DNA from: Marsupella aquatica
Taxonomy: Eukaryota; Plantae; Marchantiophyta
Direction: 5' to 3'
Assembly: GCA_973895155.1 (NCBI GenBank)
Contig: OZ316893.1
Span: 24,107,520-24,171,519, forward strand
Length of the DNA: 64,000 bases
Part shown: in pieces, positions 34,210-64,000 of the stretch
Numbering within the stretch: the first letter of the stretch is position 1
Layout: each line of letters begins with the position of its first letter
Made by a program: the position numbers and the translations under genes
The notes under the pieces: model-generated
Seen by the model: the letters and a program-made list of their open reading frames with translations, nothing else
What the model was told of the DNA's origin: nothing
The model's database searches: none

Positions 34210-34258
34210 CAGAGAATATCACTGTAAGCGTACAGTCCTGTCACATCCGTCAATTTCA

Positions 34259-35911: not shown

Positions 35912-36164
35912 CTCGATCAAAGTCAACAATATTTTGAGTAGTCAAAGATTAGAACTACAAATTCAAGAGTAGTTCAAGTTTGGACTTGTTATAGATACTG
36001 TGTAGCTTAATTTTGTCCCATGGAAAATAGTGTTCGAAAGACCAGGTCAGTTAAATTCCTGGATAGTGCTAGTGGATATGGATTCCACATCCGAAGTCCT
36101 TTGGGATCAATGCAACCATTTTTGAAATCAAGGAAAAATCGAGATTCCTCTGACTGACAATTCG

Positions 36165-38289: not shown

Positions 38290-38383
38290 GCTCTCGTCGC
38301 TCTCGCTCTCGTTGCTCTCGCTCTCGTTGCTCTCGCTCTCGTTGCTCTCGCTCTCGTTGCTCTCGCTCTTGTCGCTCTCGCTC
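38290..38383. repeat. 15-bp minisatellite (GCTCTCGTTGCTCTC), about 6 copies
   Basis: Seen directly; produces the RATRA / LVALA repeats in the ORF track. Confidence 0.9.
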
Positions 38384-38542
38384 CTGCCTTGGATTTCATT
38401 TTTGTCGTTGCAGCTCGTTCGTTGTGGTCAGGTGCTTGTCGGCGCGTTGCAGCTCTTAGTAGTTGTCGATCGTTTTGACCAAGAGCTCGTTGGCGCATTG
38501 CAGCTCGCATTTACAGCTCGTATTCACTTCTAGTTTGCTAGT

Positions 38543-42831: not shown

Positions 42832-42970
42832 TGAAACAACATTTATGATTTGTCACGTTGTGACCCGAAAAAATCAGTCTCTCAAAGAATTGTTTATACA
42901 TTCTGATTTGTAGACGCGACCAGTCGCGTGAAAATAATCTCTGGGATATATCATTTGGCTGAAAAGAATC

Positions 42971-43522
42971 ATGGGCGAACCTGGTCTGGAGAGCTTCAGA
43001 TATCTATGCCCAATATTTGACGTTTTGGACAGAAGCCAAGATGGTCTACTAGCGGGATATTCTGTATTTATTGAAACACTACTACCTGGACTTCCAAATT
43101 TCATTGTTGCGGAATTGATATGGCCTCGGATCAAGGAGACTTTTAATTCCTCAGCTAATGCAGGAAATTTCTCAATAAAGGAATTGGATGAGTTTGTAGG
43201 ACTATCTTCGGTGTGTCGCAGATGGCGCCACCTTGTTGGGAATACCTATCTTCTAGGTGTAATCAAGTTGAGTTTATTAGATTTGGTTTTCCCAGGAAAT
43301 CCTACTAAACCGATCGGAAATGAGTCTCTCTCATCGACAGTTCAAAGTTTCTTCCAGAAATACCCAAGAATTAAATTCATGGGGTCAATGTCCAGAGATC
43401 TTAGGGAACTCTTCACGAAGACTTACGATGCTCTCCACCCTCTTGAAAAATGGAAATTTACAGTCAGATGCCACGAAGTTGGATACCTTGAGGGTGACAT
43501 CTACGCTTTTAAGGAATTCTAG
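42971..43522 (+). CDS. F-box-like protein 1
   Basis: LLPGLPNFIVAELIWPRI ... LSSVCRRWRHLV; intact ORF. Confidence 0.7.
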   Translation: MGEPGLESFRYLCPIFDVLDRSQDGLLAGYSVFIETLLPGLPNFIVAELIWPRIKETFNSSANAGNFSIKELDEFVGLSSVCRRWRHLVGNTYLLGVIKLSLLDLVFPGNPTKPIGNESLSSTVQSFFQKYPRIKFMGSMSRDLRELFTKTYDALHPLEKWKFTVRCHEVGYLEGDIYAFKEF

Positions 43523-43587
43523 TTAACTTACGTGACCAAGCGCGTCGTATGTCATCTAACAATGTTTTGTGATCTGATAAAAGCAGG

Positions 43588-44154
43588 ATGAGCCAACTTT
43601 TGAATGAGGCTTGAGAATTCCTTTCATCTCATGAAAAGAAATAGAAAACAATATGGGATACGCTGGATGAAACCTCCTCTAGTCTCATTGGAGGAATACC
43701 AGATGTTTTGGTCATTTCAAACATTTGGCCAATACTCTACGAACACTTTATTTCAATTGAAAGATTGCATGGATATCGACACCTCAATAACGATTTGGTT
43801 ATCGATAGGGTCCGAGACCTTATTCGGCTTGGAGCTTGTAGCAAGAAGTGGAACTTTTTAGTTACAAATACAAGGTTATGGGCTATCCTCAAACAAGCAA
43901 ACCGGATTGTCGATGTCGCAAATGATGCTCTTTACGACATACCCAAAACTGACGAGTTGGAGTTTGACTCAGTCTGTCGAGTTATTCGACAAGATATTTC
44001 TATGCTTCCAGAAATATCTGTTCTTGGGACTACTACTTCTGACAAAATCGCATTGTTTACGAACAAATATAACAATTTAGATGAGGAAGAACAAGATGTC
44101 CTAATCGAAAGGTTTGGTAGATTTTCTCAGAATCTTGGTGGTCCCAGTTCTTAA
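43588..44154 (+). pseudogene. F-box-like protein 2
   Basis: ATG 43588 with two premature stops, then LIGGIPDVLVISNIWPIL ... LGACSKKWNFLV; paralogue of its neighbours. Confidence 0.65.
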
Positions 44155-44188
44155 TGGATAGGTTCTTGTTCTTAATCTTTTCCATATT

Positions 44189-44719
44189 ATGCTGCAGTCC
44201 TTTGACATGAATCAAAAATCTCATCGTCAAATGATGATGAAGCGCATTGCACGTGCAAAGGTTATCAACCGAAACATGATATGGAGTCAAGCTGAAGACC
44301 TGATACCCGGTCTTCCGGATGATATTGTCGAGAAATATATTTGGCCATTAGTCAAAGAGTTTTTCCACTGTCTTGGGAATTTGTTGGATACTGCGATTAA
44401 AAATCGGGTCATGGACTTGATCGCCATTCGAACAGTCAGTAAGAAGTGGTGCCACATAGTTACTTATAGTAGTACTTGGGCGACGGTCACCTTGGTAGCT
44501 TACGACCTCACTGATAGACTAGGATATGAATCGCTTCGAAGGCATTTGACTTCACGGAGTGTAGCATTAAGATTTACAGAATCCATCAGAACTCTCCTGC
44601 CGCTGGACATTGTGGGTGGATTTGAAGGATCTGAACTTGACACGTTTAGGAACCTTTGATTTTGGTTAGATGAAGATGAGCGAGAAGATTGGGTCAGGAT
44701 AAATGTTCCTAAAATGTAA
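44189..44719 (+). pseudogene. F-box-like protein 3
   Basis: LIPGLPDDIVEKYIWPLV ... IRTVSKKWCHIV; TGA at 44657 is probably premature because the frame continues FWLDEDEREDW to 44719, matching the tail of paralogue 2 (LDEEEQD). Confidence 0.7.
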
Positions 44720-44794
44720 TTCGGCATGACGCGACCATGCGCGTGTTAGTATTTTATAATAAACGTTTAACTTTCAATATTTGTTTGTTTCAGA

Positions 44795-44997
44795 ATGGAT
44801 CCTACCGGAACCTCAAAGCGGAAAAGAGACTCATCTAAAGCTGCTTCTCGTAAGAAAACCAAGACAAAAATGACTCCCGCAGAGACATCCATACTTGCAT
44901 ATCGAGGAAAGTCAATCAGAGAGAGAACAACGGAGACAAAGAGTATCCATCTCTTTGAATCGACTGAGATATCCGATTTTGGAATAGTCGTTCGCGA
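44795..44997 (+). pseudogene. Basic N-terminal ORF fragment, probably interrupted by element 4
   Basis: MDPTGTSKRKR..RKKTKTK (NLS-like) follows a pyrimidine tract plus CAG; the frame closes 30 bp after the putative MULE terminus. Confidence 0.4.
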
Positions 44998-45706
44998 GGG
45001 GAATTTACAAACGATAGCAAACAGATAACAGTAACAGGAAACAGATTCTGGTACCAGTTAAAAGGAGCTATTACCAGTGAACAGTGTTTGGATGGTCGTG
45101 AACAGTGATCTTAAAAAAAGGTCCCAAAATCTCCATTTGAAAGTACAAGAATAGAAAACAAAACCACCAAACCCTCGTGATAAATAAAAGAACAACACGG
45201 GAACAATTTTTTGAAACATAAAAGATGGCTGCCAATTGAGATACACAAAATCCAAGACAAATACAAGTAGAAAAGAAAGGCCGGAAAAAACATTCGCATA
45301 TATTATCGCAAAATAGAAAATGCGCTCGGCTTAAGTGATACAAAATGCAGTTATCAACATCAACAATCTGGCCTAAAAATCCCATCCATGAAGTCACGAT
45401 CGACACTGTCGGAGGTTTGCGACTAATACATGAACAGCGCTCGGCGCTAGCCAAAAACTAACTAGAAAACTAGTCGTTTCTTGGAGACAAGATGCGTCCA
45501 AACCCAGACAACATAGTCAAGATCCATTCCCTCCCACAAAATCCGTTGTCGTTTCAATAGCGCCCGGCGCTAGCCAAAACCTAAATAGTAGACAACCGGG
45601 AAAACCCTAACACCAGAGCTGAGGTCGACTTCAATGCCACAAAATCCGGAAAACTTTAGCAGCGCCCGGCGCTAGCTTAAAGCGATCAGCAAAACAAAAT
45701 TTCCAT

Positions 45707-46249
45707 CTAGCTTTCTGAGTTGCAATCATCATCCACTCCTGCTGCTTCTCTCCGCCGATCTTTCTTGAAGCCGAGACCACGCAAACGAACGTATCCCTCT
45801 GAAGGTCCTCGATGAACAGCCCTCGTAAAATGTTCATTAGGAATATTACTGTCCTTAAAATCAACTCGCCCGAACATTTCTTGTACTCTTCGATCGATTG
45901 GGAGTACCCCATCAACAAGAACTCCCGAGTGAGACGAAAACCGACTAGAGAACGGAGGCGTAGGGGAATCGACAATCCAAGGGATGTTCTTCTCTCCAGG
46001 ACTAATAGCCTCATCATACGGGAGAGCATGACGGTTCCAAAAAGTGGAAGTTTCAGTTTCTTCAGTCTCCATCCGCGATTCAAAAGAGCTGAAATGGCTC
46101 TCTTCCGGACGCACACGAGAAGGACGAAAAGCTGCCTCCCAATCCATTGGCTCATACTGACTCGCCATGTTCCAAAGATCCCGATCTAATATGTAACCTC
46201 TCCTCCCGTAAGAACGTCGTCCGCGAGTGCTATAGCCGACAAAGGTCAA
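45707..46249 (-). CDS. Hypothetical protein (element 4 cargo)
   Basis: 180-aa ORF bracketed by palindromes at 45661 and 46612; family not recognised. Confidence 0.3.
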   Translation of the reverse strand: MTFVGYSTRGRRSYGRRGYILDRDLWNMASQYEPMDWEAAFRPSRVRPEESHFSSFESRMETEETETSTFWNRHALPYDEAISPGEKNIPWIVDSPTPPFSSRFSSHSGVLVDGVLPIDRRVQEMFGRVDFKDSNIPNEHFTRAVHRGPSEGYVRLRGLGFKKDRRREAAGVDDDCNSES

Positions 46250-47182
46250 AGAAAGGTCCGCGAAGACTAAGACACCAGATAAAGGTCCGCGTACACTACC
46301 ATTCCGAAATGACCATCAAACTATCATCGTCCCGTTCTATTGCCTCCCGAAACTATCTTCGCCTTGGTAACAGGTATCGTCCCGTTCTCTCGCCCTGCTC
46401 TAACGTCCCATTCTATCGTCTTCCCGAAACTATGGTTGTCCTCAACTATCGACGTCCCCAACTCTCGTCGTCCCGAACAAACCTAAACGGAAACTATAGT
46501 CCTCCCTTCCGCCCGGTCCCTAAACTATGGTCCCCAACGGTTTTCCGACGACTGACTAAAGAACACAATCCGACGACTGACTAAACGGCCATTTAGAGAT
46601 TCCATTTGGCGAGCGCCAGGCGCTTGTAAAGAACAGAAGTCAAAAGTAATCAACAAGTAGAGAGAAATCAACAATTTCAAAGGACCCTCAGCAAAGGGAA
46701 ATAATACACTTGTTACAAGCGCCGGGCGCTGCTAAAAGATTTAGCCTCAACTACCCACTACTTCTCACGGTTCCGAAAATTCTCAGTCGGAACCAGAATC
46801 TGTACTCTGGGATCTGTGCGTGGACACAGCCTCATCATCTACGTACTGGCTGCGGGAGAAGTCATCAACATAAGGATGTTTAATGAACTTTCGGTCAACA
46901 CGTACCCCTTCGTAACCGAAGACCTTTGTTTTCCCAGCAAAGTGTCCTTGCACTTTCTGCTTTCCTTGCGGCTTTCTCTGCATAGGAGGGAAGAACAAAC
47001 GGTTTTTCCGGTGTTTCTCCGTTGTGTCTCGCGATCTTCCTCCGCAGTTTGAATCGTCTCCTTGCATTCCACTCTGACCTGATATAACAAAGTCCATTTT
47101 GTAAGGCACCTTTCCCCAAAACAACAAAAGAAATGTTATGAATTGACGGGAATGGAGAAAGAAGCTTATGAGTTTATGAACA

Positions 47183-50100
47183 TTACTCGGAAGAGTCATC
47201 ACTATCGGTTTCATCTACAGCTGCACGACGCTCTCCCTTTTCCTCCTCAGAGTTTCTTGTACCTTGTTCCTCTCCACCTTCACTCGATTCATCATCAGAA
47301 TCAAAATTGAGAACCGACCGAAGCTTATCTCTTTTTTTTCTGTCGGCAGTAGGAACAGGTGGAGGTAACACTGCAATCTCTTTGGGAGACAACAAATCCA
47401 TGAAAACCTTTGAAGCGGTTTCAATAAATTCTTTCCGGTGTTCTATCCCGAGTACGAATCGTCCAAAGAAGTCGCCAGCAATGTAAGAGCCTCCAGCCCC
47501 AGCAGTCCAATCCATAAAAATATCACGAGGCCGTGTGACAAGCTCTATAACAGATTGCATAAAACCCACAGACAGACGAGCATTTCCAACAAACTCCATT
47601 TGCGGGAATGGATCTGATTTGAGCGAAGAGAGTCCGATCAAATTGGTAACCGAAGGGTCCTCACTGATGGACAGCGGCCGAAATTTGGGGTCTTTGGGAA
47701 TTTTACATTTCCCATTAATTCGGCCAAATATGTCGAGCCTGAGGGTAAACATCTCTCGGTCTGTCTTTGCCACATACATCGGGTCAGACATCACAACATT
47801 ATGCAAGCATATACATTGAAATTTCCTTGACTCCTGACAGGCAGCAATGACTTGCGACATGGGATCGTACTCCCCATTGTGTAGAATTACAAGGAACCCA
47901 TCATCTGATAAAAATGGATCCATGGATTTGAAAAAAGATCTCGCCATTGAGTGATCTGGAATGTTCCATTTAGGAACCTTCTTATCAATGATAAATGGTT
48001 TGAACCCGGTCGGTAGGTAAATGAAGCCGGCATCCACTCCAAACGATCTTACTTTTCCCCCCGAACAACTCCCTTCTCTTTAAATCCCAACTTAACGAGG
48101 TCTTTTCCCCATTTCTCCACATCACTAACCCACTTGGGCTTCTCCTCCTTGTTGAACGTCGAGTCAAAAAATTCAGAAAGGCTTGTCTCAACCATGCAAT
48201 GGCGAGACACAGTTGTTTTGAAGTTTCCAACTTCACGTTGGAAACCAGAAGCTATAACACTCTCCCTTAAAGATTGTCCACCTTCGACAGCTCTCTTTCG
48301 TTTCTTCCTGGTACTCGTGGCGTCGATAGGAACTATAACCTTCCCTTTGTCGACTGGAGTAATGGGGTCCGATCGAGCTCCCGTGTTTGCCTCGGAAACT
48401 TCAGGTGTAGCATCCTTTTTAGTATCTCCCGTTCCCACCGTATTAGACTTCCTCCCTCCTAAAATATGACCAGGTCGTAGTTAGAATAAGTACTTTTAAA
48501 GTATTGAAAGAAGCTAGTGCCTGGCGCTAACCAAATACAATTCACTTAAGTCGCAACCGAAGCCTAATAACCAAGAAAGAGAATACCCTCAACAGAATAT
48601 TCGCTGGCAAAATCATGGATAGCAATACTTACTCTTCTTTCCAGATTTAGTAGACTCGCTCGGTGCTGCTAGCTCCGCTTTGGCTTTCGCGCGAGGTTTC
48701 GACTCCGGTCCACATGCACAACAGTTGTTTCACAGATAGTTTGCAAGTTTGTGGCAGACTTGTCTACATCGTCAAGTAGACCCTGCTTCATGTCGGACAC
48801 AAGTTTTGCTGGTATCTGAGACTTTGAAAGCTTATGGAAGGCATCTTTTTCCCTTTGATCAAAAGGAGAATCCCATCTATCTGTATCTAGATACCAGGGG
48901 CAGTGAGTTCTCTCCCATTCTGTCATTGGTCTCGGAGGAAATATGCCCTCCGTGGGGTACATAGAGTACAAATCAGCCAAGGCATCATCTTCACTTATTG
49001 AAATCCACTTCATAAAAGCTGCAGGATATGCCCAGAAGTAATCAGGTTTGGTTACCTCCATGTGCATGTAGAACCTATACACAAACCTCTTCGCTCGCTT
49101 CTGGTTTCTCTGGGTGTAATCTTCTTTGTCAGGGTACTTTGAAGGCCACATAGTGTGAAAGAACTTATTCTTCACGGAATCACCAAATCTCTTGAATTCA
49201 TTTGTAACAAACTGAACTAGATCATCAAACGAACTACAATTCCACTCTTCCAATCTATTCGCGGGCATGGTTTGCTCAACTTCACATAGACATGAATGTA
49301 ACATGCCAGCAGCAATTCCCTCCACACTATTCCAAGTGATCCAAGTGTGGCACCACTATTTTACTGGATCATCGTTAACACTTGCTGGGTGAAAAAACTG
49401 TCTCCGCAGCTCAGGATTGCAATGTGCCACAAGTAAAGTGCTTCGTAACTTTGGGTCTAGAGCAGAAACAGCGGTGAACAATCGTGCGCGATCCATCGTA
49501 CATACAACGGTGTCAGGCTTCTTCTCTCTCTTGTTTCTCTCTGTGACAGCATACATTTCTGCACATGTACTGAGGAAATCTTCAAATTCAGGACTTAATA
49601 AGGGCGTAATTTTTGAAGACTTCACTGCCCAATCTTTGGTTGCGTCTTTCATCATGGCCGCATGCCGTTTTGAAATCTCGTCCGCCGACCATGGACTCCC
49701 TTGAGCCTCCGCTGCCTCCATGTCGAGTTTGAATTGATGCGAGTACGACTTTATCTTATTCTCACAAAGAATGTAAACAAGTGCTTCTTGTGGCATCTTC
49801 TTCGTATACCATGACCCCTTCCGAGTTTTCAGCCGAATGCTTTCAAACTTCTTGAAATTACCCAGGTCAATCAGTTTACTGTAATACTCAAGGTCATGCG
49901 CCAGAATTTGTTTGATTCTGTCCGCATCCAGGATCCAGGAAGGCTCTACAACTGCTTGGCCAAGCCTACACGAACAAACATTGAGAGTAAGAGTCAATGA
50001 AAAACAATTCATGTATAAGCAGCGCCGAGCGCTAGTAAATACAGCACTCGCAAGATTTAAGGAAAGAACTGGAAATCATGAGAACTTACTGATTCATGGT

Positions 50101-50877
50101 GTGCATAGCTGCCTCAATTTCAATGAGAGATCCCTTGTCTCCTTTAAATATTGTACAGAGCACACGAGGATGATATTTTGGATTGTCCGGGTTCTCCTCT
50201 GTTACAAGCGTCTAGGAGTACAGCCTGTGATTTCCATCGAATACAGAGAACATCTTATCCTTCAAGATGAGAAAATCCGGGTCAGCCTCGCATTCAGCCT
50301 CAAACTTCTCGTTCTCCAATTGCCATATTGGATCCCATGAATCACGAATGTCATGGGTACAGGTCAGAACAATTCTGTTCTCATCCGTTGGTTGCACATA
50401 GAAACGCATCCCTATCAAAGAGTTGTAACCCATACTACGAAAAGAGTCTTTCAGCTTCTCGATGGAAGAGCTGTCTTTCTACAGAGTACGAACCACCTCC
50501 ATGTGAACCAATCGACACAGAGGGATTCGAGGCGGCTCCTTGTCAAATCCACGAGAATCCTTTCCAAAAGACATGACATGCTTCGAAATGAGATCAGTCT
50601 CAGCAAGCGCGCAATCCGCAACATCCTGGATCGCAATTGTGTCTACGTTGTCCATCTTTCTTCGCAAAGGATTTGGACCCAAAACACCGCTGACAGAAGT
50701 GAGCGGCAACAACTTTGAGGAACGAGTTACACGACGTGTATAGACTGAACCAGTAAACGAAGACTGCGAAGATTCAGAATAAGCTCGCTCCTGGTCAGGA
50801 ACCACACTATACCCTCTGGAAGAAGAGGGGAATACCTCCATCATCTTCCTTCTAGAAGCGTACAAACTATCGTACAA
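47183..50877 (-). pseudogene. Spliced gene: ParB/Sulfiredoxin-like N-terminal domain + helical region + beta-class N4C/N6A DNA-methyltransferase-like domain
   Basis: Exon 1: RIPLCRL...VR...IEKLKDSF..MGY...FSVFDGNHRL (ParB/Srx DGxHR box). Intron 49966-50089 and intron about 48475-48632. Last exon: VDAGFIYLPTG (motif IV position), FLSDDGFLVIL, and SVGFMQSVIELVTRPRDIFMDWTAGAGGSYIAGDFFGRFVLGIE (motif X-I, like LI...T.PGD.VLDPFAGSGTT..AA...GR..IGIE). In-frame stops at 50479, 50212 and 49356; +1 frameshift in the G6 run at 48057-48062. Confidence 0.8.
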
Positions 50878-51103
50878 TGAAATTATGGAACTATAATCAT
50901 CTCTAAACGTGTAATATATTCTAGCGGAAGGATGACATAACCTAGAGGAAAGCCATTAGCTCTGATGTTTGGCGGTTTCCAACGTCTGTATACGGAAGGT
51001 TTAATTACCAAAATCAAACGGTAGAAGATGCGTAACACACACGGAAGTCATAAGTTACCGTTGAATGTTACCGTTAAAGACATTTCCTAACATCATATCA
51101 ATA

Positions 51104-51526
51104 CTAGCGCCGGGCGCTAGCATTAATGATGACCATCAAGGTGAACAATTTAGAGTATGCTTATAATAGCGCCCGACGCTAGTATAAACTGGAAGAAATT
51201 TAGAGGTCTTTTTTGAAGGAGCTATGACATAAATTTCGGCCTTTCCACCCCCATATTTTATTAAAGTATCCTTCAGTACATCGTTTACGGAGAAAATTTC
51301 TCAAATGTAATACTAGCGCCCGACACTAGTATAAATGTTCATTTATCATCCATAATCAATCAAAACCATCCTTTGAAGGCACCATTTATTCCCAATTACC
51401 ACCTGGTATGTGGTCATAATGTTCATTTTAAGGGAATTTATTCTATACTAGCGTCGGGCGCTAGTTTGGAATGTCGAGATTTCAGACACATTTTTAGTGG
51501 CGTATTTTAGTTAGCGCCAGGCGCTA
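51104..51526. promoter_or_regulatory. Cluster of five TAGCGCCNGGCGCTA-type palindromes in the divergent intergenic region
   Basis: Copies at 51104, 51167, 51314, 51449 and 51512 in otherwise AT-rich DNA between the ParB-MTase and transposase starts. A regulatory role is inferred. Confidence 0.7.
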
Positions 51527-51749
51527 CTAAAATTTGATAATACCTTGTCATATCTTATGGTCTGTTTAAGTAAGGTTGGTGATCTTTTTAGCAATATGTT
51601 CGTGTCTGACATCCGGACTTCTCGGGGAAAAACAACAAAAATCATTTATGGTGCCAACGGATCCTCCATCGTCAATGTTTTATGTCATATACAAACGGAT
51701 CGGTTAACGTCAAATTCCCAGGTTCGACAGATATAAGCTGAACAATACC

Positions 51750-52789
51750 ATGAACTTTTCTTCTTTCAAACGCTATAGCCCTCGGTTTTTGTTTTTGTTC
51801 ACCATGTCTCGGTCTATCGTTCTTTCTCGATTCAGTTTTGAAGATATTGTGACTATCCCCGTCCCCATGGAAGATACGTACAAGCAGGTCCGGGAGAGGT
51901 ATCTCTGCGGGAGATTTGATTTGAAGATGAATGACATTGAGGCCATTGTTCGAGAGCTCGAATCCATTGATGATATCGAGGATGCTACAACGTTCAATGT
52001 CGATGACGGTGAACAGTTTTGGCATCTCTACGCAGGGATCTTGTACTCGGTTTGTTTAAGACAGCATGTAGGACTGTCCAATTTCCCGCCGGTTCCATGT
52101 GATGTGGTTGAGATTTCTTCAAGTGAGGATGGAGATCGTACTCTAAGTCCACCGTCGAAGAAGAAAAGCCCGCTCCCTACTGTCGTGAAAGCTGAGACTC
52201 CGGGAAGCTCTAAGCAGTTGGAGGTCGTGTACCGGCGCAGTGCGATGGATACGTTACTCAAATCAACTGGTCATAGTGAGTTATCACGGTTCATATCAGC
52301 GGGTCATTTCAAGCATGAACAAGTGTCCTGTCTACCAACTAAGTACAATGGTAACGTCGTGTTTGAGTTGCCGCCCATTGATAAGATGCTCTCTAAAGGC
52401 TCTAGGCTTAGGGACATGGATCGTGCCAAAGATTGTTACATTTGGACACGCATATTTCCAACAACTGCAACTGTTCATCCTAAAAACCTTTGGCAGTTTG
52501 GGAAGGTTACCTGTACGGGATTCATTGAATGCAGGAACAAGTCCTGCGACTATTTCCAAAGGAAGAAGAAGGCAAATGCTAAGGCATGGCAGGGTACTCC
52601 AAAGCTCAATGGTCAGTATGCTGTGGGATCTTTCATCGAAGAGGGAGGTGTTGTTTGTCATTACTGCGAACAGATTCCTTTTTGTGTGAAGTACTGCCCT
52701 GCCCGTTTGTTTTACATGTACCCCCAAGTATTACTTGATGCGGAAACATGCAGTCATATGTCCCGCCTGGCAATTCATATAGGTGAGCA
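51750..52789 (+). pseudogene. MULE transposase, 5' part (GCM/WRKY-type zinc finger)
   Basis: CTGFIECRNKSC...CHYC..CVKYCPARL...LAIHIGEH; removing the 52790-61583 insertion and one TSD copy restores in-frame IGEHNHPGR. Confidence 0.85.
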
Positions 52790-54167
52790 TGTAGTTTGCT
52801 ATGAAGAACCAAAAACACATTTATAGGTCTTCAAACTCGGTATTCGTTCCCATAAAGAACAAGATGGGGTTGATTTGATACATAAAAACACAAATGAGAG
52901 TTTAAAGACTCTCTTTAACACATAGTAATCAGGATTGATTACTTTACTAAGGTATTTTGAAGATCGCTCCACAGCGGTGAGTGGTTTTTAATGACAACTC
53001 AGCATCATGTAACCATAAATTAATGAAAAGGAAATGATTAACAAAACACAAGAAAAAATATCTCAAAGTATGCTAAGGGAGTCTGGAATAGACCAAGGTT
53101 ACTCCTTAGACATAAGTCAAAATGAAAAGACTTCAGGATTCAAATCTATATTGCTTTTCAGATCTAAATTGCTTACTAGAGTACTCTTTTAAAATGCCGT
53201 CAACATGTCTTATCCTTTCTTTCTAAATGGTACTCAGATAAGATCTAAAAGGTAGCTACTTCAACATTTAGATGGTACTAAGCAACATGAAAGAAAATCC
53301 ATCAATTTCAAATAAGACTTAAACTCAGTGAGTTAACTCCAAGAACTCAGGAGATTGTAATGAGTCACCAAAGAGGAATCTGTCATCAGATCTCATAAGA
53401 TTTACACAATTGGAATTTTACTTCCCATGATTTATTCAAAGGATTAAACCACAAGAAGGAGGAAAGTCTTCTCCTGGTGTCAAGCTTGATCTCGAACTCT
53501 TAACATTCATGATCAACTGGTAGAACACCAAGGAAAGGCAAAAATTGCTAAACTTTACCATCATCTACACTAGTGGTAGAGGGGTCTTATAGTAAAAATC
53601 TACTGAGTGAGAGGTCACAGGGTCGAAGAGACATGCCTCTTCATACCCCTCAAAATTTTAAAATGACGATTCAGTAAGTGAAAAGCCGGAAAAATGGCTA
53701 AGTATGAACTCGTAACTAGTAACTATTAACTCGTAATCGGTTGTCTATCGGAACTCGTAATCGGAAACTAGTAACTCTTAAACTAGTAAAAGCTAAGTCG
53801 TAACTCGTAATCGCGGTAAAGTAAAGACTTGATGAATTCAACTATTTTTAACTTTCTAACTATAAGTCAGAAAACTCTGAGATTTTGCCAGGAGGTTTTC
53901 CTAGGTACAGACTATACACTAAAGAAGTATGACAGCTTCTAAAGCTCTAGAACACATTTCTAAAAATCAGATAAGATGCACTACTCTAAAAACTAACTAA
54001 AAGACTTCTTCAAGCTTGCTGTCGGATGTCGTCGGGTTCTAGTAACTCCACAAGGGTAACAATTCGGTTCTGGGTAACCTCTATCAGCTCAGCTTGGCGT
54101 GGGGATCCTCTGGAGTAATGTAGGCACCTCAGTTGTCTCTCAGGGTACATCAAAGGCATTCTCTTCA

Positions 54168-55769
54168 TCAAATAACAGTTGTTCTACAACCTCGTTTCTC
54201 AAGAGCTTTGTACTCCCTGTAAACTCGGAGTCGAAAGTCCTGCTCTGTTTTTATGCTAAAACAGAGCGAACAGGTCAAGTCAATAAACCCTCCACCAAGT
54301 TTTGATATTCGCCTACATTCTCTATGTCTAAATAAACCAGAGATCACACAGGTTTCTTGAGTTGTCAAACACCACACCTCTGCCCTCACTATGGGCTCTG
54401 CATACCAATTCCCATCTAATTTCAGTTGATCATTTAAGATTTCCTTGATAGGCCTGGTATCTGAACCATATTTCACCACATCACGCCAGAGACCCCAGCA
54501 TAGCAAAGAGAGATTGTCAAGAGTACCTTTGTCTTTTGAACTAGAACTCGAAGCTCCTCCAGTTGAGGGGCGAGTTAAGAACCCAGCTATTTTCTGTTGT
54601 TTCACATCTCTTCCATCTGGTGCACGAGGTCTCCCTGGCCTTCCACTATGCATTGGATTGCCCATTGCAGGCCTTTGACTTCTCATGACATAATTAAGAT
54701 GACTCAAGCCTCCCACATGGGCTTCCAGATTTGTTTCCAAATTGCGTTGTTTTGGAATCAATGTCAGGTTTTCAGCACAAAACTCACAACGAAGTTTGAA
54801 CTTGACCAACTCTACAGGCTCTTTGTGCACATCACCTATTACAGTAAATGTATCATGCCCGACAAGCCCACCAGCAATCTGTGCTGAGTTAATCTTCTCC
54901 ACAATCTTCACATGTTGATCAAGTATGGCTCTATCATTCAGAGTACTAGCCTCAGCCCTCTGAGCAATCACTCTGTGATCCACTTTCTCACCCCTGTTAG
55001 ATGCTACACGTTGAGCATGCTTTTTTGATGGCAAGTGTTTCACTCTGAAGTTTGTAAACACATTATTGACCATAGTTTTATCCACACCCTTGACTCTGCT
55101 ACATGCAACTGCTTGATATCTGTAGTCACATTCGCAACACTCAATATGCCCACGAGGCACACCATCCTTGTCCCACGTTCTGACTTTCCATTTGTGGTCC
55201 ACACACTTAAGAAAAGTCATCCACTCTCTCAACTTTGTCACAGAAGTCTCCCATGCTATCTTTAAGTCCTGAGACATCAATACAGAGTCTAGGCTCACTT
55301 GAGACTCAGTGGATTGGGCTCCACCTGCAGGATGGTCCTCCTGGGATGAAGCACTTGCAGGCTGGGTCTCCTGGAATGGAGCTCCACTTGCAGGCTGGTT
55401 AGAGGGTTCATCTATTGCAGGAGTACCAACTTGGTCTCCAGTAGATGTGCTACCAGGTCCATTGGATGCATGGCTGCTTCCAAGGACTTGTTGTGCCCCA
55501 TTCTGTACATCTCCTTGGACAAAATTGTTGGGGCATTTTGGGACAATGACAATCTTTCCACCACAATCCTCTACTAGATTATACCTCTCAAATTTCTCCA
55601 ACATTCTACAAGCAAGGTTGACGTCCATGAAATGGAACTCAAAGTCAAAACCTGACTCCAAATTCTTTCTAGCATCATAAAAGGTTTCACCTATCTTGTA
55701 GCTATATGATGTCAAGGGTTTACGTTCCCCTGACTCTGAGTCTGCTTGAAATATAGTGGCAGGCGACAT
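54168..55769 (-). CDS. Hypothetical protein with two C2H2/U1-like zinc fingers, probably the truncated N-terminus of another transposon protein
   Basis: 533-aa ATG-started ORF: ECCEC...KHLPSKKH and CEFC...LEAHVGGLSH, plus HREC..CSLC; ends abruptly against LTR-like DNA. Confidence 0.6.
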   Translation of the reverse strand: MSPATIFQADSESGERKPLTSYSYKIGETFYDARKNLESGFDFEFHFMDVNLACRMLEKFERYNLVEDCGGKIVIVPKCPNNFVQGDVQNGAQQVLGSSHASNGPGSTSTGDQVGTPAIDEPSNQPASGAPFQETQPASASSQEDHPAGGAQSTESQVSLDSVLMSQDLKIAWETSVTKLREWMTFLKCVDHKWKVRTWDKDGVPRGHIECCECDYRYQAVACSRVKGVDKTMVNNVFTNFRVKHLPSKKHAQRVASNRGEKVDHRVIAQRAEASTLNDRAILDQHVKIVEKINSAQIAGGLVGHDTFTVIGDVHKEPVELVKFKLRCEFCAENLTLIPKQRNLETNLEAHVGGLSHLNYVMRSQRPAMGNPMHSGRPGRPRAPDGRDVKQQKIAGFLTRPSTGGASSSSSKDKGTLDNLSLLCWGLWRDVVKYGSDTRPIKEILNDQLKLDGNWYAEPIVRAEVWCLTTQETCVISGLFRHRECRRISKLGGGFIDLTCSLCFSIKTEQDFRLRVYREYKALEKRGCRTTVI

Positions 55770-56456
55770 CCTCTATGTCCCACGTTTAATTCCCTATCCA
55801 ATTGACATATGCCAAGGGCATAGGCCTGCAAACAGAACACAACACAAGAAAGAAACACCACAATCAAAATGGACTCAATCAGAGCAACACAGATAGTTAT
55901 CTATTACTTTGTAAACCCACAAACTCATCCAATGACAACAACATAGGGATTTATGAAGATCTGGTGCCCTACAAGTAAACTAAGGAAGCCCATCTGTCAA
56001 GACCGCATCCACCAGACCAATTCCACAAGAGCCTTGCCCCATCCCGGCCATTTCTCATGGTGATTGGCTTGTAAAAGATCCATTGCAGCTTTCTCCTTTC
56101 GGGTGGGAAGGGACATACCCTTTGCATGCAAGGACTCTAGTTTGAGCGTAAGCACAAGAGAGAGTGGGATCTACACATGGCCACTTCAGTTTGTCCCAAA
56201 ATAGCTTGTCCTAGATTAGCTTGTCCCAATTGAGCTTGTCCCAGTTTGTGCTTGGTCCATGTGCAGTCGAGGCCAGGCCCATCACTCCAATCTCTCTCCT
56301 CAACATGTGCAATGGGCTGTTTGGAATTTATTTACTCACAGACTTGCTCAGAGAGGCTAGACCTTGCTTGAATAGTGACATCCCTTGGACAACCCATACC
56401 CTATGGCTAGGCTCTAAGTAGTCTTCCCCCCCACTTCCAGGCTACCTGCACCTGCT

Positions 56457-56696
56457 TCGCCTCCAAGGAGCGCTAGATTGCCAGGGATGAAATCTGGCAG
56501 TCTCCATTGAGGGCATTACTTCCCCAATGGTCTCCTTGGATTTGATGGGCCCTACAAACAATCCTAGATCTACAGCTCGCCTCCAAGGAGCGCTAGATTG
56601 CCAGGGATGAAATCTAGCAATCTCCACTGAGGGCATTACTTCCCCAGTGGTCCCCTTGGATTTGATGGAACCTGCAAACAATCCTATATCTATAGC
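56457..56696. repeat. 120-bp tandem duplication
   Basis: TCGCCTCCAAGGAGCGCTAGATTGCCAGGG starts at 56457 and 56577. Confidence 0.92.
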
Positions 56697-57375
56697 AAAA
56701 AGACAAAGCCTAACTCACAGAACCTGAAAAGAAATGCTTACCTGAGCAAAGCACACAGAGCCCTGTTTGTTAAAGCCACACAAGAGCGACAAAAAATAGG
56801 AATGCACAGAGCAAATGAAAGTAGCAAAGACAGCAAGAAGTACCAGTGATTCTCCACTCACCTATGTATTTGCAAAGGCTGATTCAAAGGTAGCTAAATC
56901 CACCTTGCGTCTAGCCCACCACAAACCTGCTCCCGACAAAGAACAATGAACGATCAAATAAGTCAATGTGCTCACTTGACTAGACCATCCAACCTTCTTA
57001 TTTCACTATTAATTGCTTTAGGGGGATGTAGGAGGAGTTCAACACAAATAGTAGGCTTACCGATCTCAGCATGGAGCTGGAGCTCAGGAAATGGAGAAGA
57101 ATGTGCAGCGTAGTCAGGACTCGCAGAAAGCATATACACAATGATCCTCTTGATGCCATCTCGATGGAGAGCTGGTGAGCCTGGAGGATTCACGGTCTAA
57201 TGTCAAACTCCCTCTAATTGTTTGGAGTGAAGCGTATTAGGGGTTGAAACGCCAAAAACTCGTCTATTCCGAGAGTATAGGGCTGTAAGTTGGCGGGAGT
57301 AAGAAGGCCAAAGATGTTCTTGAGGCGCAGACTTTTGAAGTGTGGAAGAGACACAATATCATGGCAATTATCAAA

Positions 57376-58185
57376 TATATGCTTCGATCAAGAGATTGAA
57401 GAGCAACTACATACAACTGAGGTCAAAACTTCGAGCAAAGCAGCCATGGACAATTTTTTCTATATCTGGATCTGAAGTGTACGTAGTACGATCCGTTGCA
57501 GGATGAATTAAAAGTCCACCGATTTGCCACTGGGAAACATACTAGCAAGATTAACCAATCGACTGCAGCAAGAAGAGAAACATGGAAACATCCTAGCAAG
57601 ATTAACCAATCGACCGCAGCAAGAAGAGAAACAAAGAAAGTCTGAAATGACGACACTACAAGCAGTGGTCGGGGCACTAAAATAAGTTTAGATGTGAAGC
57701 CTCATTTGAAAGCCAGAGAACTATATACTACAGGAGAAGCAGATATCCAATGTCAAGGCAATCATGAATATATGCTCAGCTAGTCTTCGGTCGGGGCACT
57801 GAAATAAGTCTTAATGAGAAGCCTTGTTTTGAATGAACCAGAGAAAGACGTGGTAAGGAGAAGATCAGACATCCAATGTCATGACAATCATGAACTATAT
57901 GCTTCGATGAAGCGAAGAGCAGCTACGGACATCTGAGATCAATATTTTGAACATGGCAGCTTGTCGCATTTATTGTCCTATATCCGGATCTGGAGCGTAT
58001 CACGATCCGTTACAGGATGCATTATAAGTCGACCATATTCCCGATGGGAAACATACTAGCAAGATCAACCAATCGCGCGCAGCAAGAAGAGAAACAAAGA
58101 AAGTATGACAACACGGCAAGTAGTCTTTGGTCGCACACTGAAATAAGTTTAATCAGACGAGAAGACTCTTTTGAATGAGCAAGAG
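57376..58185. repeat. Diverged nested duplications (about 500-bp period, with a 51-bp tandem pair at 57533 and 57584)
   Basis: ATATGCTTCGAT..., GATCCGTT.CAGGATG, GGAAACATACTAGCAAGAT.AACCAATCG and GGTCGGGGCACT.AAATAAGT recur in the same order. Confidence 0.8.
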
Positions 58186-61100
58186 AAATAGTACACGACA
58201 AGATCAGGTTAATTAACAATTGGTGCAGGTGAGAGTTTAAGGTGTCATCGCGCAATACTGACCACTGAACTTACTCGTAGTGAGCAGGTTAAGTGACGGT
58301 AAATGGAACATAATGCGTACCTCTAACATTGAAAACACTGGCCCAAAATCTGATCAAAGCATGTACGCATCGATCACACTCACAGACCTGCCTCCGATTG
58401 CAAACTGTCTGACCCTCACAAAGCCAATCACCAAGAGCACTCTTCTGAATATCCCTCTAAATTGCAATGAGAGGACGAGCTCGAACGGAATTTTTTCTGG
58501 GATTGGAAGCGGAATACCTATCAAACCCACTTAGGAGCTGATTGTGCCTGCAATGCGTTCTGCGCGCATAGAGCAGGAATGTTCGAGGTTGGGTTGAGTC
58601 AGTGTCTGAATGACCTAAAGCGCGATGCCCGCTTCAATGCAATCTTTTTATGTAAGAATACGATGTCTGCGTCTCGATCCCGGAGTCACGCACCTACCTC
58701 TTTTGGTTTGGGTTTCCTTTATATATACGTAACTACAAAGGGAAGTGAAGGAATCACTATTTGCTGGATGTTCGCTGACTTTACGACTCAATGTGCGCTG
58801 TGATGCCATAGTTGCGCTAAGGTCAGCATTTTTGGATGAGTAAATCTGGCTTGAGTGGAAAGGACTGTAGTGAGCATTTGCTCCAGTGGTTGCGGTCAGG
58901 CCTAGAAGGAGGACGAGTTGTGAGCATCTACGGCGCCGCAGGAGAAGTAGGCCCATAGTGGTGAGGAGAGGAGAAGAGACGTTAAGTGAAGTGAAGTGAG
59001 GTCAGGAAGGGAAGCGAGAAGGGACAGAAGGAAAGGGAGAAATGATGGAGGAGACGAAGAAGAAGAAGAAATGAGAAAGCAGTCAAGTAAGAACTGGCTG
59101 CGGCAGGCCTCCTGGCTGACGTCTAAGAGTGCCGGCATGTGGGCTGCCGCGATGCTAGCTTGGTGGACAGCATCACAAGATTAGCATTGGTGTGCTGCCG
59201 GGACAACCCGGACGAAAGGCAAACGATTGGAGAGGTCGCAACTCAGCTGGAGTTGTGAAAGGGGACCTAAGTATACCAAGACTGACGACGGGATTGATAC
59301 CGCTGATGCATACAACAAAGAAATGAACTCACCTGAGAGGAGGGAATCATTCATCGGCAGCCCTGGCGCCAGTCCCACCAAACTGCTCCCGGGATTATCA
59401 CCGATCCTGGATTTTACACTCTTCAAACAAGTCAAATGGTACTCAATAAAAATTTATGTTCAGGAGGTGGGCAAAGGATCACAACGCAATGGACTTCCAC
59501 TATTCTTTCTGACTCGCCTTCCTCATGCGTGAACCAGATGGGGAGAGCACAACTACGCAGTGTCTCACCTCACAATGGTTGCTTCTGCCCTCGCTTATGT
59601 TCCCCCTATATTGCTCTCTTTTCACCCCAAGTCTTTTGCCTCGCGCGAAGTAGTAGCAGCCACAGCCAATTTGATGTACACAAACGCCAAGAAAACAAAT
59701 GAAGGCACGCAGGCAAGTCCTCTAATCCTCTTCCTCCTCCCGGCCTCCACCCTTGTCCTCGTACTCAAGTTTGACGTTGACCCCCCGCTCGACCCCCGCC
59801 TCGACCTTCACCTACTTTCGCTATTCCCCACCTTGAATGTTCTCACTGTATTGACTCAGATAGCAAGCACACAAGACAAGAGCTCAGAAGTCCAATTGCG
59901 CGAAAGCAGCTGCAACAGCATGGATGAGATTGGAGTTATAACTACTGTTACATCCTTATTATACCTCTGCTTAATGGCGAAGCTGCTTGCCAACGTACAT
60001 GTTGCCACCTTACATCACTCGATCATTTTCCAAAGATAGGTTACTTTGTTGCAAAATGGATTGCTTGCAATCTGCAATGAAAGAGCTGATGTTCAGAACC
60101 CGGTTCAGTAGCTTTCCGTTGCTTTATGGTATCACAGTTAGATTGACAAAAAGGGATGCAAAGTAATACCTTCAAAGCTTGGGCGCTCTTTGGCTTTCAC
60201 CGAGTCCAACCAAGCCAAAACCCTGCATCAGAACATGTGCCAAACTGTCAACTACAAAAACCCCCACAAATCCCACATTAAAACCTGTATCACCAGAGTC
60301 ACATCAGCTCACAGGCATACATTGTAACGCAAACTAGCAAGAGGGTGGCATGCACTTACTACCAAGCGAGGAGCCGATGGGGAGTCAAAAGCAATAAGTT
60401 GACTGTGTAAGAGCAGAGTATAGATGCAGGATGCAGCCCAAAGAAGATACAAGAGCTATGGCGAGTCTGAAATTGCGTGACCTAAACTGGCAAGCGGGAG
60501 CGGGAGAGAGTACCTAGGGGAGAGAGAAACAGGGTACTCCTCGCATGACGAAGGCACAGGGAGCGGGGCGAGGAGGAGGAGGCAAGGGGAGCTGGTGAGT
60601 GAACCCCCGAGCGGGCCCCAGAGCCGGCCCCCGAGTGAACCCCAGTGTGGCCAGCCCCCAGGTACCCCCCGACACCCACCCATGATCACAGGAGCACACA
60701 AACCCTGACGCATATACACCAGGCCCCGCACCAGGCCTCATATCTGGCCGTCTGACTAAAGCAAGAATTAATCTGATCCGTCTATGTGGGATAATACCAA
60801 GTTGGCCCCAAAGACCCCGGCCCAATATCTACTCAACTCCCAAACATGTCTCCCAAAACCCATTTGCCTCAACTTATGGATCACAAACCCTAAACCAAAC
60901 TTGCCTTAGCATACCACATAATTAAATTATTGATTTAGTACATGGACACGTGTACTAATGAGGTGATGACACGTGGACCAACCATATAGTGACGCGTGTC
61001 CTAGGCATTTTGGGTAACCTTGCGTAAAATTCTTGTGACATGTATTTGATAAGAACCTTATTATTAATATTGTGCCAAATGTATATATGGGGATGTTATC

Positions 61101-61583
61101 TACTTTAAAAATTATTGTAAAAATTACTTTGCATTGTATTAAAAATACCCTTGCATCGTTCGCACGTCCGCCCTGTATTAGTAAGACTGAGGGCCCAGGG
61201 GAATAGAAGGGTCGAAGTCTCCATTTGACATCTCTGAAATACCGGTTGAAGCTGGGCAGAGTTTGAGAGGTAAGGTGGAAGAGAAGTCAGTAATGAGCAC
61301 CTATGTCTTGCATTCCTTCCCTTTCAAGGTGAGCTCTTCATCCGTTGTGGAGTCCCGTTGAACTAGTTGTAAGATGTCACGATCACAGAGTCGCCAAATC
61401 TTAAGGTGTAACTCGTAAAGCAGTGAACTAGTAAACTCGTAAACTGAGTTTACTCGTAACTTAGGAACTTAGTAACTTTGAATGCTGTTTTAGTTATAGT
61501 TAGCAATAATTGCAGTCTAAACACCGTAAAAAATTTAAAAATTTTCAGTTTCTTCATGCTTTTGGAATTACCCACTACTTACA

Positions 61584-64000
61584 GAGCACAACCATCCAGG
61601 TAGAAAAACCTTTTGTAGGAGTGCGGAGAAGATAGCTGAGGATTTAATTAAAAAAAAATGAAGCCAATCCTCTGTCAAAACCGGCAGGGATCTTGAATTC
61701 TGCTATAGGGTCCTTAGTGAAATCTCTCTGCAAACATGTTGACGACATGGTCGATATCGAAGAAACTGAAATATGGAAGTCTCTGATGGTCCTTTCCACT
61801 CCGCAGAAGTTTGCATCTCTTTGTCGGAGCGTTAGGATAGACCAAAAAGGTCGGGTGAATTAGATTTTCTCTCGCAAATGCAGAGGAGGATTCATGTGTC
61901 GTTTCTCCAAAGGTATTTGCTTCCAGGTCAGGGATGTCAGAACGATAGGCCTCACATCTTTAAAATGACCGTGAAAGGTCACGGTTCCGGTGTGGATCTT
62001 TTGAGGCAGATGCAACCGGGTGGAAGACTCGAAGGAGCCTGGGTAAGTTTTGATGTGATGCAGCATGTCACCACGGATTGGTTTACTTTCAGCGCACACG
62101 TCTACGACCACAATTTCCGTGCACTGTGTACAATTTTCACATGCGAGTTGAAAGGTGAAGACACTGAGTCCTTCGAAAAGGCATGGAAAGTGATGATTGA
62201 GGTTTGCAAAGAAAATGAACTTCAGGAGGTTGTCATCCAAGGATTTATGGCCGACAATGCACAAGCTGGATGGAATGCAGTGCGAAATGTTTTTTTTGGT
62301 GGACACCCGGACCCGGAGAGGGAGCGCTCTGATGCATTTCACTTTTATCAATCTTTTCATCGTCATTCCAAGGAAGGAGTACTGGAAGAATGTCAATCGG
62401 AGCATCGGAGACTTTGGGAGAAACTGAGAAATGCTCCATCATTTGTGGCAGCATACCGGGTGTCCCGAGAGATTGTTGTGTGGTGGCAATCAGGAAACTG
62501 TGTCCCCGGAAAGCTGAAGATGCTGCAAAGCTGGATATCTTGGTGGGTTGTTCGCTGGCGCCAGTGGGGCAATTTTATTCGAGTGGTAAGGCATCCATCT
62601 ATCTAGACTGTAATGTTCATCAACTTCATATTAGCGCCAGGCGTTGGTTATTTTCTCCATACACGTCAAAACAAGTAGTATAGGATATTGAAGCCAATAT
62701 GTAGTTAGAATTCAGTATTAAACATTGAAATTGTATTTCAGGCCTGTTCTACATATTTATGTTGCCAGCGCCGGGCGCTGGTAATAGAATACTACTTACG
62801 GTTGACATTTTCGTATGGCAGAGCAAAAGCGCTGAGGAAGGTGCCTTGATCCCCAACTGTACAGGGTCAGAATCAAGGCATGTGTCCATGAAAGCCTCGG
62901 CTACAAAGAAAAAGGTCGGTCTTTATGAAGCTTGCGAAGTTGACCAAAACCGTGCTCTCTCTCAAGTTGCCGGATACAGTGCATACCGTAAAGGCTTGAA
63001 CCGGGGGAAGGGGCCAACTATATGGGAATTGGCGTTTTGTTCCGCCGATCAAGCAGGTTCGCCAAGATTGTTTGAAGAAGCGACTAATATGCTTCTATCT
63101 AACGCAGCAGAATTCGATTTGGAAAGAAGTACTCCCTTGAATGGAGATATAATGACAAAGTCAATGAAGAGGAAGGGACATGCAACTGGGACTGTCTCTC
63201 CACAAGATTCCCATCGGCATGACACCGTTCTAATAACCACACCAAATACTCGTGGTTTGAAAAGGAAGAACCTGAATAGAACTGACTTTTCTTCTATTCC
63301 CTCAAGTTTTGATCATCCTGTCACAAAGGTGGTGAATCTCTCAGGTATGGTCACATTAGAGAGTGATACTGATTCACTGGACTATACTCCTCAAACAACC
63401 CGAACAACAAGATCCTCAAAACCTCCGCTCAGTGCCCCAGCAACACTTCAGAATCAACTTCCATGCACGATTGTGCTAGAGAAGGATGTCCCTCCGGGGC
63501 AGTGGCAGTTGCAACGGACATCGAAGTATGGAGCAGGTCCGCAATGCAATGGTACACTGAATGGGAGTTCGGATCGCGATGAGTGTCGAAATTGTATCAA
63601 GAAGGTTGGCTTCCATTCGTCTGAAGGTGTTGTCGGAATTGTCGTGAAGGGCCATCGTCTCTTCAGGGGCGAACCCATCTCCGAAATGATTTGGTTTTGC
63701 CCGAACCAAGCGTGTTACAAGAGTCATCCGTGTCGTGGTGTTCAGAAGCTTCCTCCTTTTCCTGACATTTTGCCTGTTCTGAAGGGTACGAGCCTGTCTC
63801 CTTCTGAAATTACATTCCTGGAAGAGCAAGGACTTGTATTAGCGCGAACAACAGGATTGAGTCAATCTGCGCCATCTGCTTTTGACCTCAGGATAAATGT
63901 TAACGTGTTCCCAGAAACAATAAGGTTTTTGGAGCCGAATCTCCGACTTGGTAGTCGGAATGGGAGGACCTCAAGGCCTCGGTCTAATCTCACTGTGGGT
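61584..64000 (+). pseudogene. MULE transposase, 3' part (DDE core; runs off window)
   Basis: WVSFDVMQH (D1), GFMADNAQAGWNAV (D2), AFHFYQS, intron 62586-62821, then PNCTGSESRH (E) and an open frame to the window end. Frameshifts at the A9 run 61650-61658 and near 61855. Confidence 0.85.

Follow-up and report, generated by a model that had tools for sequence, protein, structure and literature searches.

Does a plant transposon encode a protein that recognizes its own DNA and keeps it out of reach of host silencing? The question is raised by a 64,000-nucleotide stretch of the genome of the liverwort Marsupella aquatica (hereafter the window; contig OZ316893.1, positions 24,107,520 to 24,171,519, forward strand), whose right-hand part, from position 44,998 onwards, is occupied by a transposon resembling Mutator-like elements (MULEs). 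Within this element a transposase gene lies head-to-head with a spliced accessory gene, predicted to join a ParB/sulfiredoxin (Srx)-like domain to a methyltransferase fold, and a short palindrome recurs between the coding exons. A first-pass annotation of the sequence had proposed a new system in which the accessory protein loads on the palindromes and marks or shields the element's own copies. The account that we favour, tentatively and with a little less than even confidence, is that the accessory protein would bind the palindromes and lower host 5-methylcytosine (5mC) over the element, its methyltransferase fold being non-catalytic.

The palindromic site and CpG retention

All 14 palindromes listed in the first-pass annotation lie where it placed them, within 2 bases. 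Scanning the window with the 13-bp core AGCGCCNGGCGCT recovered 7 exact copies and 13 with at most one mismatch, and none of 100 dinucleotide shuffles of the window gave any match; the fourteenth copy, at 51,314, carries two core mismatches. With a 15-letter pattern at up to 3 mismatches, 12 copies fall in 44,998-52,789 and 2 in 61,589-64,000, and there are none in 1-44,997 or in an 8.8-kb later insertion, as had been claimed for the first 45 kb and the insertion. The sites are distributed as follows, ORF denoting an open reading frame.

45,436-45,673 (no strand): three palindromes, cores at 45,436, 45,559 and 45,661, 440-660 bp inside the left end
46,612-46,730 (no strand): two palindromes, at 46,612 and 46,718, between ORF3 and ORF4
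48,459-48,632 (minus strand): intron 2 of the accessory gene, GT-AG, 174 nt, palindrome at 48,516
49,966-50,089 (minus strand): intron 1 of the accessory gene, GT-AG, 124 nt, palindrome at 50,021
51,106-51,525 (no strand): five palindromes, at 51,106, 51,168, 51,315, 51,450 and 51,513, between the two divergent genes
62,586-62,821 (plus strand): transposase intron, GT-AG, 236 nt, palindromes at 62,633 and 62,767

The confinement to introns and intergenic DNA noticed earlier is complete: the coding model covers 72% of the element, and 14 of 14 palindromes lie in the non-coding 28% (P about 2e-8). Each of the three predicted introns, the two in the accessory gene among them, holds at least one palindrome, and the first 437 bp of the element's left end hold none. 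Sequence flanking the sites is unrelated between copies (median identity 30%, best 39%). Half-site position 9 is a purine in 28/28 half-sites and position 11 is A or T in 28/28, and these outer conserved positions extend the site to 23 bp, WNRCTAGCGCCNGGCGCTAGYNW. Given unrelated flanks and conserved outer positions, the site looks selected rather than duplicated, a pattern that fits selection for a dimeric reader. An origin of the palindromes as remnants of tandem duplication was ruled out by the unrelated flanks, and a tandem-repeat check of the window found no array over the 14 sites.

The palindrome contains three CpG dinucleotides. All 8 core mismatches in the present copy are C>T or G>A, 7 of them in a CG or CCG context. 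Other copies of the element were followed in assembled contigs of public runs (4 runs per comparison, 5 in all, from at most three studies); the core mismatch at 48,518 is missing from contigs of 4/4 runs, in which other copies have a perfect intron-2 core. Because the mismatches are all C>T or G>A and the change at 48,518 is absent from other copies, the sites were evidently perfect once and are decaying by 5mC deamination in a dead copy.

We computed CpG observed/expected ratios (o/e) in tiles, masking this palindrome family and that of a neighbouring element described below. Over these tiles, which are not independent, the ratio was 0.82 for the element (19 tiles, median 0.76), against 0.37 for 1-30.5 kb (60 tiles; P 9e-10 vs element) and 0.51 for the insertion (17 tiles; P 3e-4 vs element). 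The accessory gene had a synonymous NCG/(NCG+NCA) share of 0.42 and the transposase one of 0.36; control values were 0.14 and 0.05 in two CACTA-like genes, 0.05 in a DUF7869 gene and 0.08 in an ORF of the insertion. Pooled synonymous NCG:NCA counts were 86:135 in the element and 37:389 in these four palindrome-free transposon genes (P 2e-19). Since the present copy diverges from other copies by only 1-2% in long contigs, the CpG contrast is a property of lineages. A metagenome search with the methyltransferase alignment returned a single 1.1-kb contig (L001; 44% protein identity), which has a CpG o/e of 0.74 over its 1.1 kb and keeps the methyltransferase-ORF3 order, an ORF3 relative (35% identity, E 7e-8) following the methyltransferase exon; this contig holds no palindrome of the AGCGCCNGGCGCT type. 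The retained CpG likely records, in the sequence, a prolonged escape from CG methylation.

The accessory gene and its two folds

The accessory gene is modelled as three minus-strand exons joined across GT-AG introns, about 1,120 codons in all.

50,090-50,844 (minus strand): exon 1, predicted ParB/Srx-fold domain, DGNHR at 50,238-50,224; stops at 50,479 and 50,212 in the present copy
48,633-49,965 (minus strand): exon 2, middle region, about 440 codons; stop at 49,356, frameshift near 48,720
47,183-48,458 (minus strand): exon 3, linker then predicted beta-class methyltransferase fold (about 48,080-47,380); frameshift near 48,056

From the in-phase introns, and from homologous fragments that begin or end at the same junctions, we infer that the three exons encode one protein of about 1,120 residues; a search aimed at longer homologues with the parts fused returned none, though such a negative is weak evidence. 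Exon 1 has 12 homologues and exon 2 has two (33-49% identity). Across the gene, homologues are diverse (21-72% identity) and come from two liverwort classes, 7 of the 10 looked up belonging to the liverworts Calypogeia fissa and Riccia sorocarpa. Exon 2 had no match in metagenome contigs, and related-locus searches of viral contigs and prokaryote genomes returned none.

Structure comparison bore out the proposed ParB/Srx-like domain through Foldseek and VIA matches that are each weak and all agree. The structure used was a model of an intact homologue, P0087 (62% identical; predicted local distance difference test score, pLDDT, 85). Its Foldseek ranks 1-10 are Noc, ParB, KorB and Srx (best E 0.027), and 13 of its 14 VIA rows at Z of at least 2 belong, as read from their titles, to the ParB/Srx superfamily, the best being KorB (Z 7.5, root-mean-square deviation 3.0, 95 aligned). 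In the ESM Atlas, P0087 falls with DUF3723 and ParB_N clusters (31% and 11% of members), and profile matches, although weak, agree (PHROG ParB E 0.054, DGQHR family E 0.06). Weak singly and consistent together, these matches identify exon 1, at the level of the model, as a ParB/Srx fold.

The DGNHR motif noticed at the outset (DGNHRL in full) is invariant in 11/12 exon 1 homologues. The motif of CTPase clamps is arginine-rich, of the GxxRxR type; exon 1 does not have this ParB-type CTP-binding motif and carries DGNHRL instead. Neither exon 2 nor its two homologues matched any family profile. Separately, the ParB-like domain of P0087 resembles fungal DUF3723 clusters (Atlas score 0.94). DUF3723 is a common cargo of Starship elements, and the likeness hints at a wider class of ParB-fold cargo.

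The methyltransferase domain could be modelled from the window's own exon (pLDDT 93.7), and its proposed beta-class fold is well matched: Foldseek E values against beta-class enzymes are around 1e-12 (M1.HpyAVI 1.6e-12, CcrM 3e-12), PF01555 matches 18/39 aligned members, below its cut-off, and motif IV precedes motif I, the beta-class order. The catalytic motif is missing. Motif IV reads YLPT at 48,019-48,008, where the DIPY of a phage enzyme is aligned, and that enzyme's HPTQKP-type motif aligns to GNARLS. Among 83 methyltransferase hits, 38 cover motif IV and 46 motif I, the rest being fragments or unaligned there. Position 4 of motif IV is Y, F or W in 0/38 homologues (T, N, S or other, one His); position 1 is Asp in 6/38, Ser in three, and Y, A, F, C or R in 29/38. 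The S-adenosylmethionine (SAM)-binding motifs are kept, with the motif I Asp in 45/46, its Gly residues in 39/46 and 41/46, and the motif II Glu/Asp in 43/46. In N4CMT and CcrM the motif tyrosine stacks the target base, and Asp and Pro hold its amino group (PMC10406627). Some homologues may be pseudogenes; the common xLP(T/N/S)G pattern across them points to a family-level change. Because motif IV lacks an aromatic residue in the present copy and in 38/38 homologues, the domain has most likely become a pseudo-enzyme, perhaps with SAM binding retained, and writing of N4-methylcytosine (4mC) or N6-methyladenine (6mA) appears unlikely. Of the two roles first suggested for the protein, marking the element's copies is thus disfavoured, and shielding them finds indirect support in CpG retention.

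Five Riccia-type homologues (P0040, P0051, P0056, P0069 and P0079) keep the motif IV Asp (DPPT, DMPT, DLPS). Riccia-type proteins appear closer to active enzymes than Calypogeia-type ones and are the best candidates for residual activity. Many homologues have an apparent intron in the methyltransferase domain at the equivalent of 47,730-47,760 (minus strand), which the window's gene reads through.

The element, its transposase and its surroundings

The remaining features of the element are these.

44,998-45,044 (plus strand): left end and probable terminal inverted repeat of about 47 bp, placed by contig junctions
45,707-46,168 (minus strand): ORF4, about 150 codons, no family match
46,783-47,173 (minus strand): ORF3 or a further exon, start uncertain, frameshift near 46,900
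51,804-52,789 (plus strand): 5' part of the transposase, Cys/His-rich region, interrupted by the insertion
52,790-61,583 (no strand): later insertion, 8,794 bp, TG...CA ends, without palindrome, not part of the system
61,589-62,585 (plus strand): transposase core, two catalytic Asp and DxxH, frameshifts near 61,649 and 61,850
62,822-64,000 (plus strand): last transposase exon, likely catalytic Glu (GSES), continuing past the window

The transposase lies head-to-head with the accessory gene, as first described, and its assignment to MULEs stands in part. Its putative DDE catalytic residues, picked by eye, are spaced 67 residues from Asp to Asp, 26 from Asp to DxxH and 127 from Asp to Glu; in ISCth4 of the IS256 family, which is related to MULEs, the spacings are 66, 21 and 107 (PMC7780238). 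No profile in Pfam, NCBIfam, PHROGs or PDB matched the protein, and a C/DxxH motif is common to hAT, P and Transib transposases as well. The transposase is thus probably MULE-like, a label that follows from residue spacing and not from a profile match. Plasmid hits at E 5 were set aside as chance.

Contigs of public runs show other copies, in line with the first impression of a multi-copy element. Upstream of 44,998, 3-11 contigs per run diverge in 4/4 runs (flank agreement 0.39-0.59), and the unlike sequence before this position marks it as the left end. In 3/4 runs, 3-5 contigs leave at 45,044-45,045 into a common continuation, which we infer to be the other end of a terminal inverted repeat of roughly 47 bp. 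A left end at the first palindrome, or one beyond the F-box genes to the left, was ruled out by the junction at 44,998. MULEs are flanked by target duplications of 8-11 bp; the right end of the present element lies beyond the window, and the element exceeds 10 kb even without the later insertion.

The copy at this locus is dead and belongs to a MULE-like DNA transposon present in multiple copies. Beyond what the first-pass annotation had seen, both genes are broken here: the transposase by two frameshifts and the 8,794-bp insertion, and the accessory gene by three stops and two frameshifts. Other copies are free at least of the stop at 50,479 and of the frameshifts near 48,056, 46,900 and 61,649. 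The later insertion, also seen at first pass, has a 5-bp target duplication, GAGCA, and its empty site is present in other element copies; no long terminal repeats were found in it. Its ends, at 52,790 and 61,583, have high depth, and a contig joint skipping 54,178-61,200 suggests a nested 7-kb piece. The insertion carries a 534-codon Cys/His-rich ORF at 54,171-55,772 (minus strand) without a Pfam match.

The element sits within a different repeat, a second multi-copy element at 34,000-44,997, which carries F-box-like ORFs at 42.9-44.7 kb. This host element has a palindrome of its own, ACGCGACNNGTCGCGT, with 58 copies in 34,000-44,997, 10 of them outside a tandem array, and none elsewhere. It also keeps CpG (synonymous NCG share 0.33), and the rise in CpG starts at 34.0 kb, just before the first ACGCGACNNGTCGCGT palindrome. 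The tandem array (38,651-42,798) repeats a 269-bp unit 15.4 times, with three ACGCGACNNGTCGCGT copies per unit, and is CpG-depleted outside the palindromes (o/e 0.28). No transposase was found in the visible part of the second element, whose remainder is expected past the edge of the window. A broken, strongly CpG-depleted DUF7869 gene at 30,817-33,936 (minus strand; Pfam E 1e-36) is transposase-like by reading; as the owner of ACGCGACNNGTCGCGT it was ruled out, since it is CpG-poor and both the first site and the rise in CpG lie to the right of it (30.8-33.9 kb). Further left are two CACTA-like transposase gene sets, the source of the CACTA-like CpG controls and labelled from reading their ORFs, at 5,700-12,400 (minus strand) and 20,400-27,250 (plus strand), the second preceded by a BRCT-like ORF and an F-box-like fragment.

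Readings of the locus and comparison with known systems

On the account that we favour, a dimer of the accessory protein would read the symmetric 23-bp site through its middle region. Bound or spreading protein would exclude or reverse 5mC silencing, as VANC does in Arabidopsis VANDAL elements, so that host CG methylation would be kept low across the element. The methyltransferase fold would serve as a DNA- or SAM-binding scaffold and not as a 4mC or 6mA writer.

Several observations weigh against this account. The domain modelled as ParB is that of P0087 and not the window's broken exon, each match to ParB is weak (VIA Z under 8), and Pfam ParB hits were found in 0/12 exon 1 homologues, with no PDB profile hit either. 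A ParB N-domain alone does not read parS, and a profile search of exon 2 and its two homologues found no helix-turn-helix in the middle region. The present copy is itself not shielded, given the C>T and G>A decay of its sites. Only 2 lineages with palindromes and 4 without, all within the window, enter the CpG contrast (P 0.067). Retention is incomplete, with a codon-junction odds ratio of 0.36-0.54, and o/e drops only slightly with distance from a site (0.85, 1.00, 0.80, 0.71); an element that arrived horizontally, or its chromatin context, could produce an equal signal. The second element follows the same pattern with no homologue of ParB or of the methyltransferase found in the 11 kb of it that are visible, the element being cut by the ParB-element insertion. 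Finally, linkage of accessory gene and transposase was observed at the present locus only, the pair not being seen on one contig at a second locus.

A more specific version of the same idea is unlikely to be right in all its parts. Here a ParB clamp would load at parS-like intron palindromes and spread, the dead methyltransferase would act as a shield or decoy against 5mC, the route would be independent of VANC, each family would have its own palindrome, and the locus would be the first land-plant case of a module of red and brown algae.

It is likewise unlikely that the transposase, or ORF3 or ORF4, binds the palindromes and thereby activates and protects cognate copies while the ParB-fold protein acts otherwise. 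Sequence-specific activation of cognate copies is reported for a Mutator transposase of Arabidopsis (bioRxiv 10.64898/2026.08.24.746577), 5 of the 14 sites fall in the interval separating the starts of the two genes and three are close to the left end, and in the second element palindromes occur together with CpG retention and with no ParB gene visible. Yet sites occur in internal introns and not in the terminal 437 bp, the symmetry of a palindrome suits a ParB-type dimer, and ParB genes and inverted repeats are described together on unrelated algal transposase types.

If the accessory protein does bind the palindromes, it could instead serve transposition, a clamp loading, sliding or bridging and pairing the ends, with CpG retention a side effect, whether of occupancy or of the family's history. 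A ParB/Srx fold whose best matches are KorB, Noc and ParB would suit this role, as would an element of more than 10 kb, and the constancy of DGNHR (11/12) implies a nucleotide pocket under selection. We nevertheless regard it as distinctly unlikely, in that CpG retention reaches coding exons far from any site, DGNHR is not the arginine-rich motif of CTPase clamps, and bridging needs no methyltransferase fold.

Strong doubt attaches to an active enzyme that writes 4mC or 6mA on the element and so blocks 5mC or marks self. The fold is complete and its SAM-binding residues are kept, Asp persists in motif IV of 6/38 homologues, mostly Riccia-type, and the palindrome offers three CpG, a context in which 4mC exists in Marchantia. 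The loss of an aromatic position 4 in every homologue covering it, the altered position 1 in 29/38 and the replacement of the HPTQKP-type motif by GNARLS in the alignment argue the other way.

Very improbable is the absence of any protective function, CpG richness on this reading being due to recent entry of the element from a lineage with weak methylation, or to insertion into open chromatin, and the palindromes being transcription-factor sites or relics: only 2 lineages stand against 4, the present copy decays by C>T, and related architectures in distant algae suggest horizontal movement, but homologue diversity across two liverwort classes makes the family old in these plants, the 44%-identical relative also keeps CpG, and intron sites are conserved amid unrelated flanks.

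Should the favoured account, binding of the palindromes by the accessory protein with lowered 5mC, prove true, it would give land plants another anti-silencing route of the VANDAL kind, unrelated to the first, and would provide a programmable pair of protein and site that keeps a long DNA stretch unsilenced. The family-wide loss of the catalytic motif moves the question from a writer to a shield. The locus also supplies a precise candidate site for a self-binding proposal already made for algae, for which the accessible texts give no functional evidence, and, in liverworts, likely hosts with relatives that can be transformed (Marchantia, Riccia). With the site, the pseudo-enzyme state and the CpG signature, the hypothesis already published can be put to direct test in a land plant.

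The concept itself is in print: for red- and brown-algal transposons, accessory genes of the ParB kind next to inverted repeats, together with self-binding, were proposed in 2025, and the architecture and self-binding idea that had been put forward here as a new system are therefore not new (PMC12477816; bioRxiv 10.1101/2025.02.11.637652). In Ectocarpus, Sola1-1_Ec32 carries a 1,104-aa ParB and N4C/N6A methyltransferase gene opposite its transposase, and self-binding and self-modification were proposed with reference to Iyer 2011 and Petroll 2025 (PMC12477816). Our gene likewise places both domains in one predicted protein, of about 1,120 aa, on the strand opposite the transposase; it differs in its MULE-like transposase and land-plant host, as against a Sola transposase in a brown alga, and in having a defined site and a lost catalytic motif, where the accessible account of Sola1-1_Ec32 predicts a methyltransferase and mentions no palindrome. 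In red algae (Bostrychia and others), PAG3 of Plavaka elements has a ParB-like domain beside inverted-repeat arrays, the PAG cassette also rides on Mutator (Chondrus) and Zisupton elements, and parS-like self-binding was proposed and compared with VANDAL (bioRxiv 10.1101/2025.02.11.637652). Shared with PAG2 and PAG3 are a ParB-like domain on a giant DNA transposon, inverted repeats and a PF01555 methylase in the cassette. There, ParB is fused to a 2-oxoglutarate oxygenase, the methylase is a separate SET-fused gene and the repeats form tandem arrays, whereas here a single predicted protein fuses ParB and methyltransferase and single sites are dispersed through introns and spacers. Traits of transposon-borne ParB accessory genes found at this locus are thus the ParB-like domain, placement opposite the transposase, a fused methyltransferase fold and inverted repeats, a likeness of architecture.

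VANC binds motifs in introns and intergenic DNA of Arabidopsis VANDAL elements and lowers methylation (PMC5735166). VANDAL resembles our element in being a MULE that encodes an accessory protein and carries motifs specific to its family in such DNA. Its motifs are 8-9 bp, non-palindromic and multiplied in tandem repeats, unlike the dispersed 23-bp palindrome; neither a ParB nor a methyltransferase fold is reported for VANC in the accessible text, and both occur here. No ORF scanned matched a VANC-type Pfam family. With CcrM, M1.HpyAVI, bdelloid N4CMT and Marchantia DN4MT1 the methyltransferase domain shares fold, motif order and SAM-binding residues; unlike them, it lacks (D/S/N)PP(Y/F/W), is fused to a ParB fold and is transposon-borne rather than a domesticated host gene. 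The accessible parts of the Marchantia and bdelloid 4mC papers do not mention ParB. The Dam family fused to a ParB helix-turn-helix is a different methyltransferase group (PMC4738411), and TET/JBP cargo is known in fungi (PMC12730594).

Bacterial ParB, Noc and KorB have in common with the accessory protein the N-domain fold, a symmetric site of similar size and several sites per replicon-like unit; the accessory protein departs from them in DGNHR, in place of the arginine-rich CTPase motif, and in a 40-residue insert. No ParA was found alongside the ParB-fold gene, nor, by profile, a helix-turn-helix. In the literature, chiefly openly readable papers, we found no land-plant report of such a ParB accessory gene. 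To the known systems this locus adds a case from a liverwort, and thus from a land plant, a dispersed 23-bp site that recurs in each predicted intron, and a signature of escape from CG methylation.

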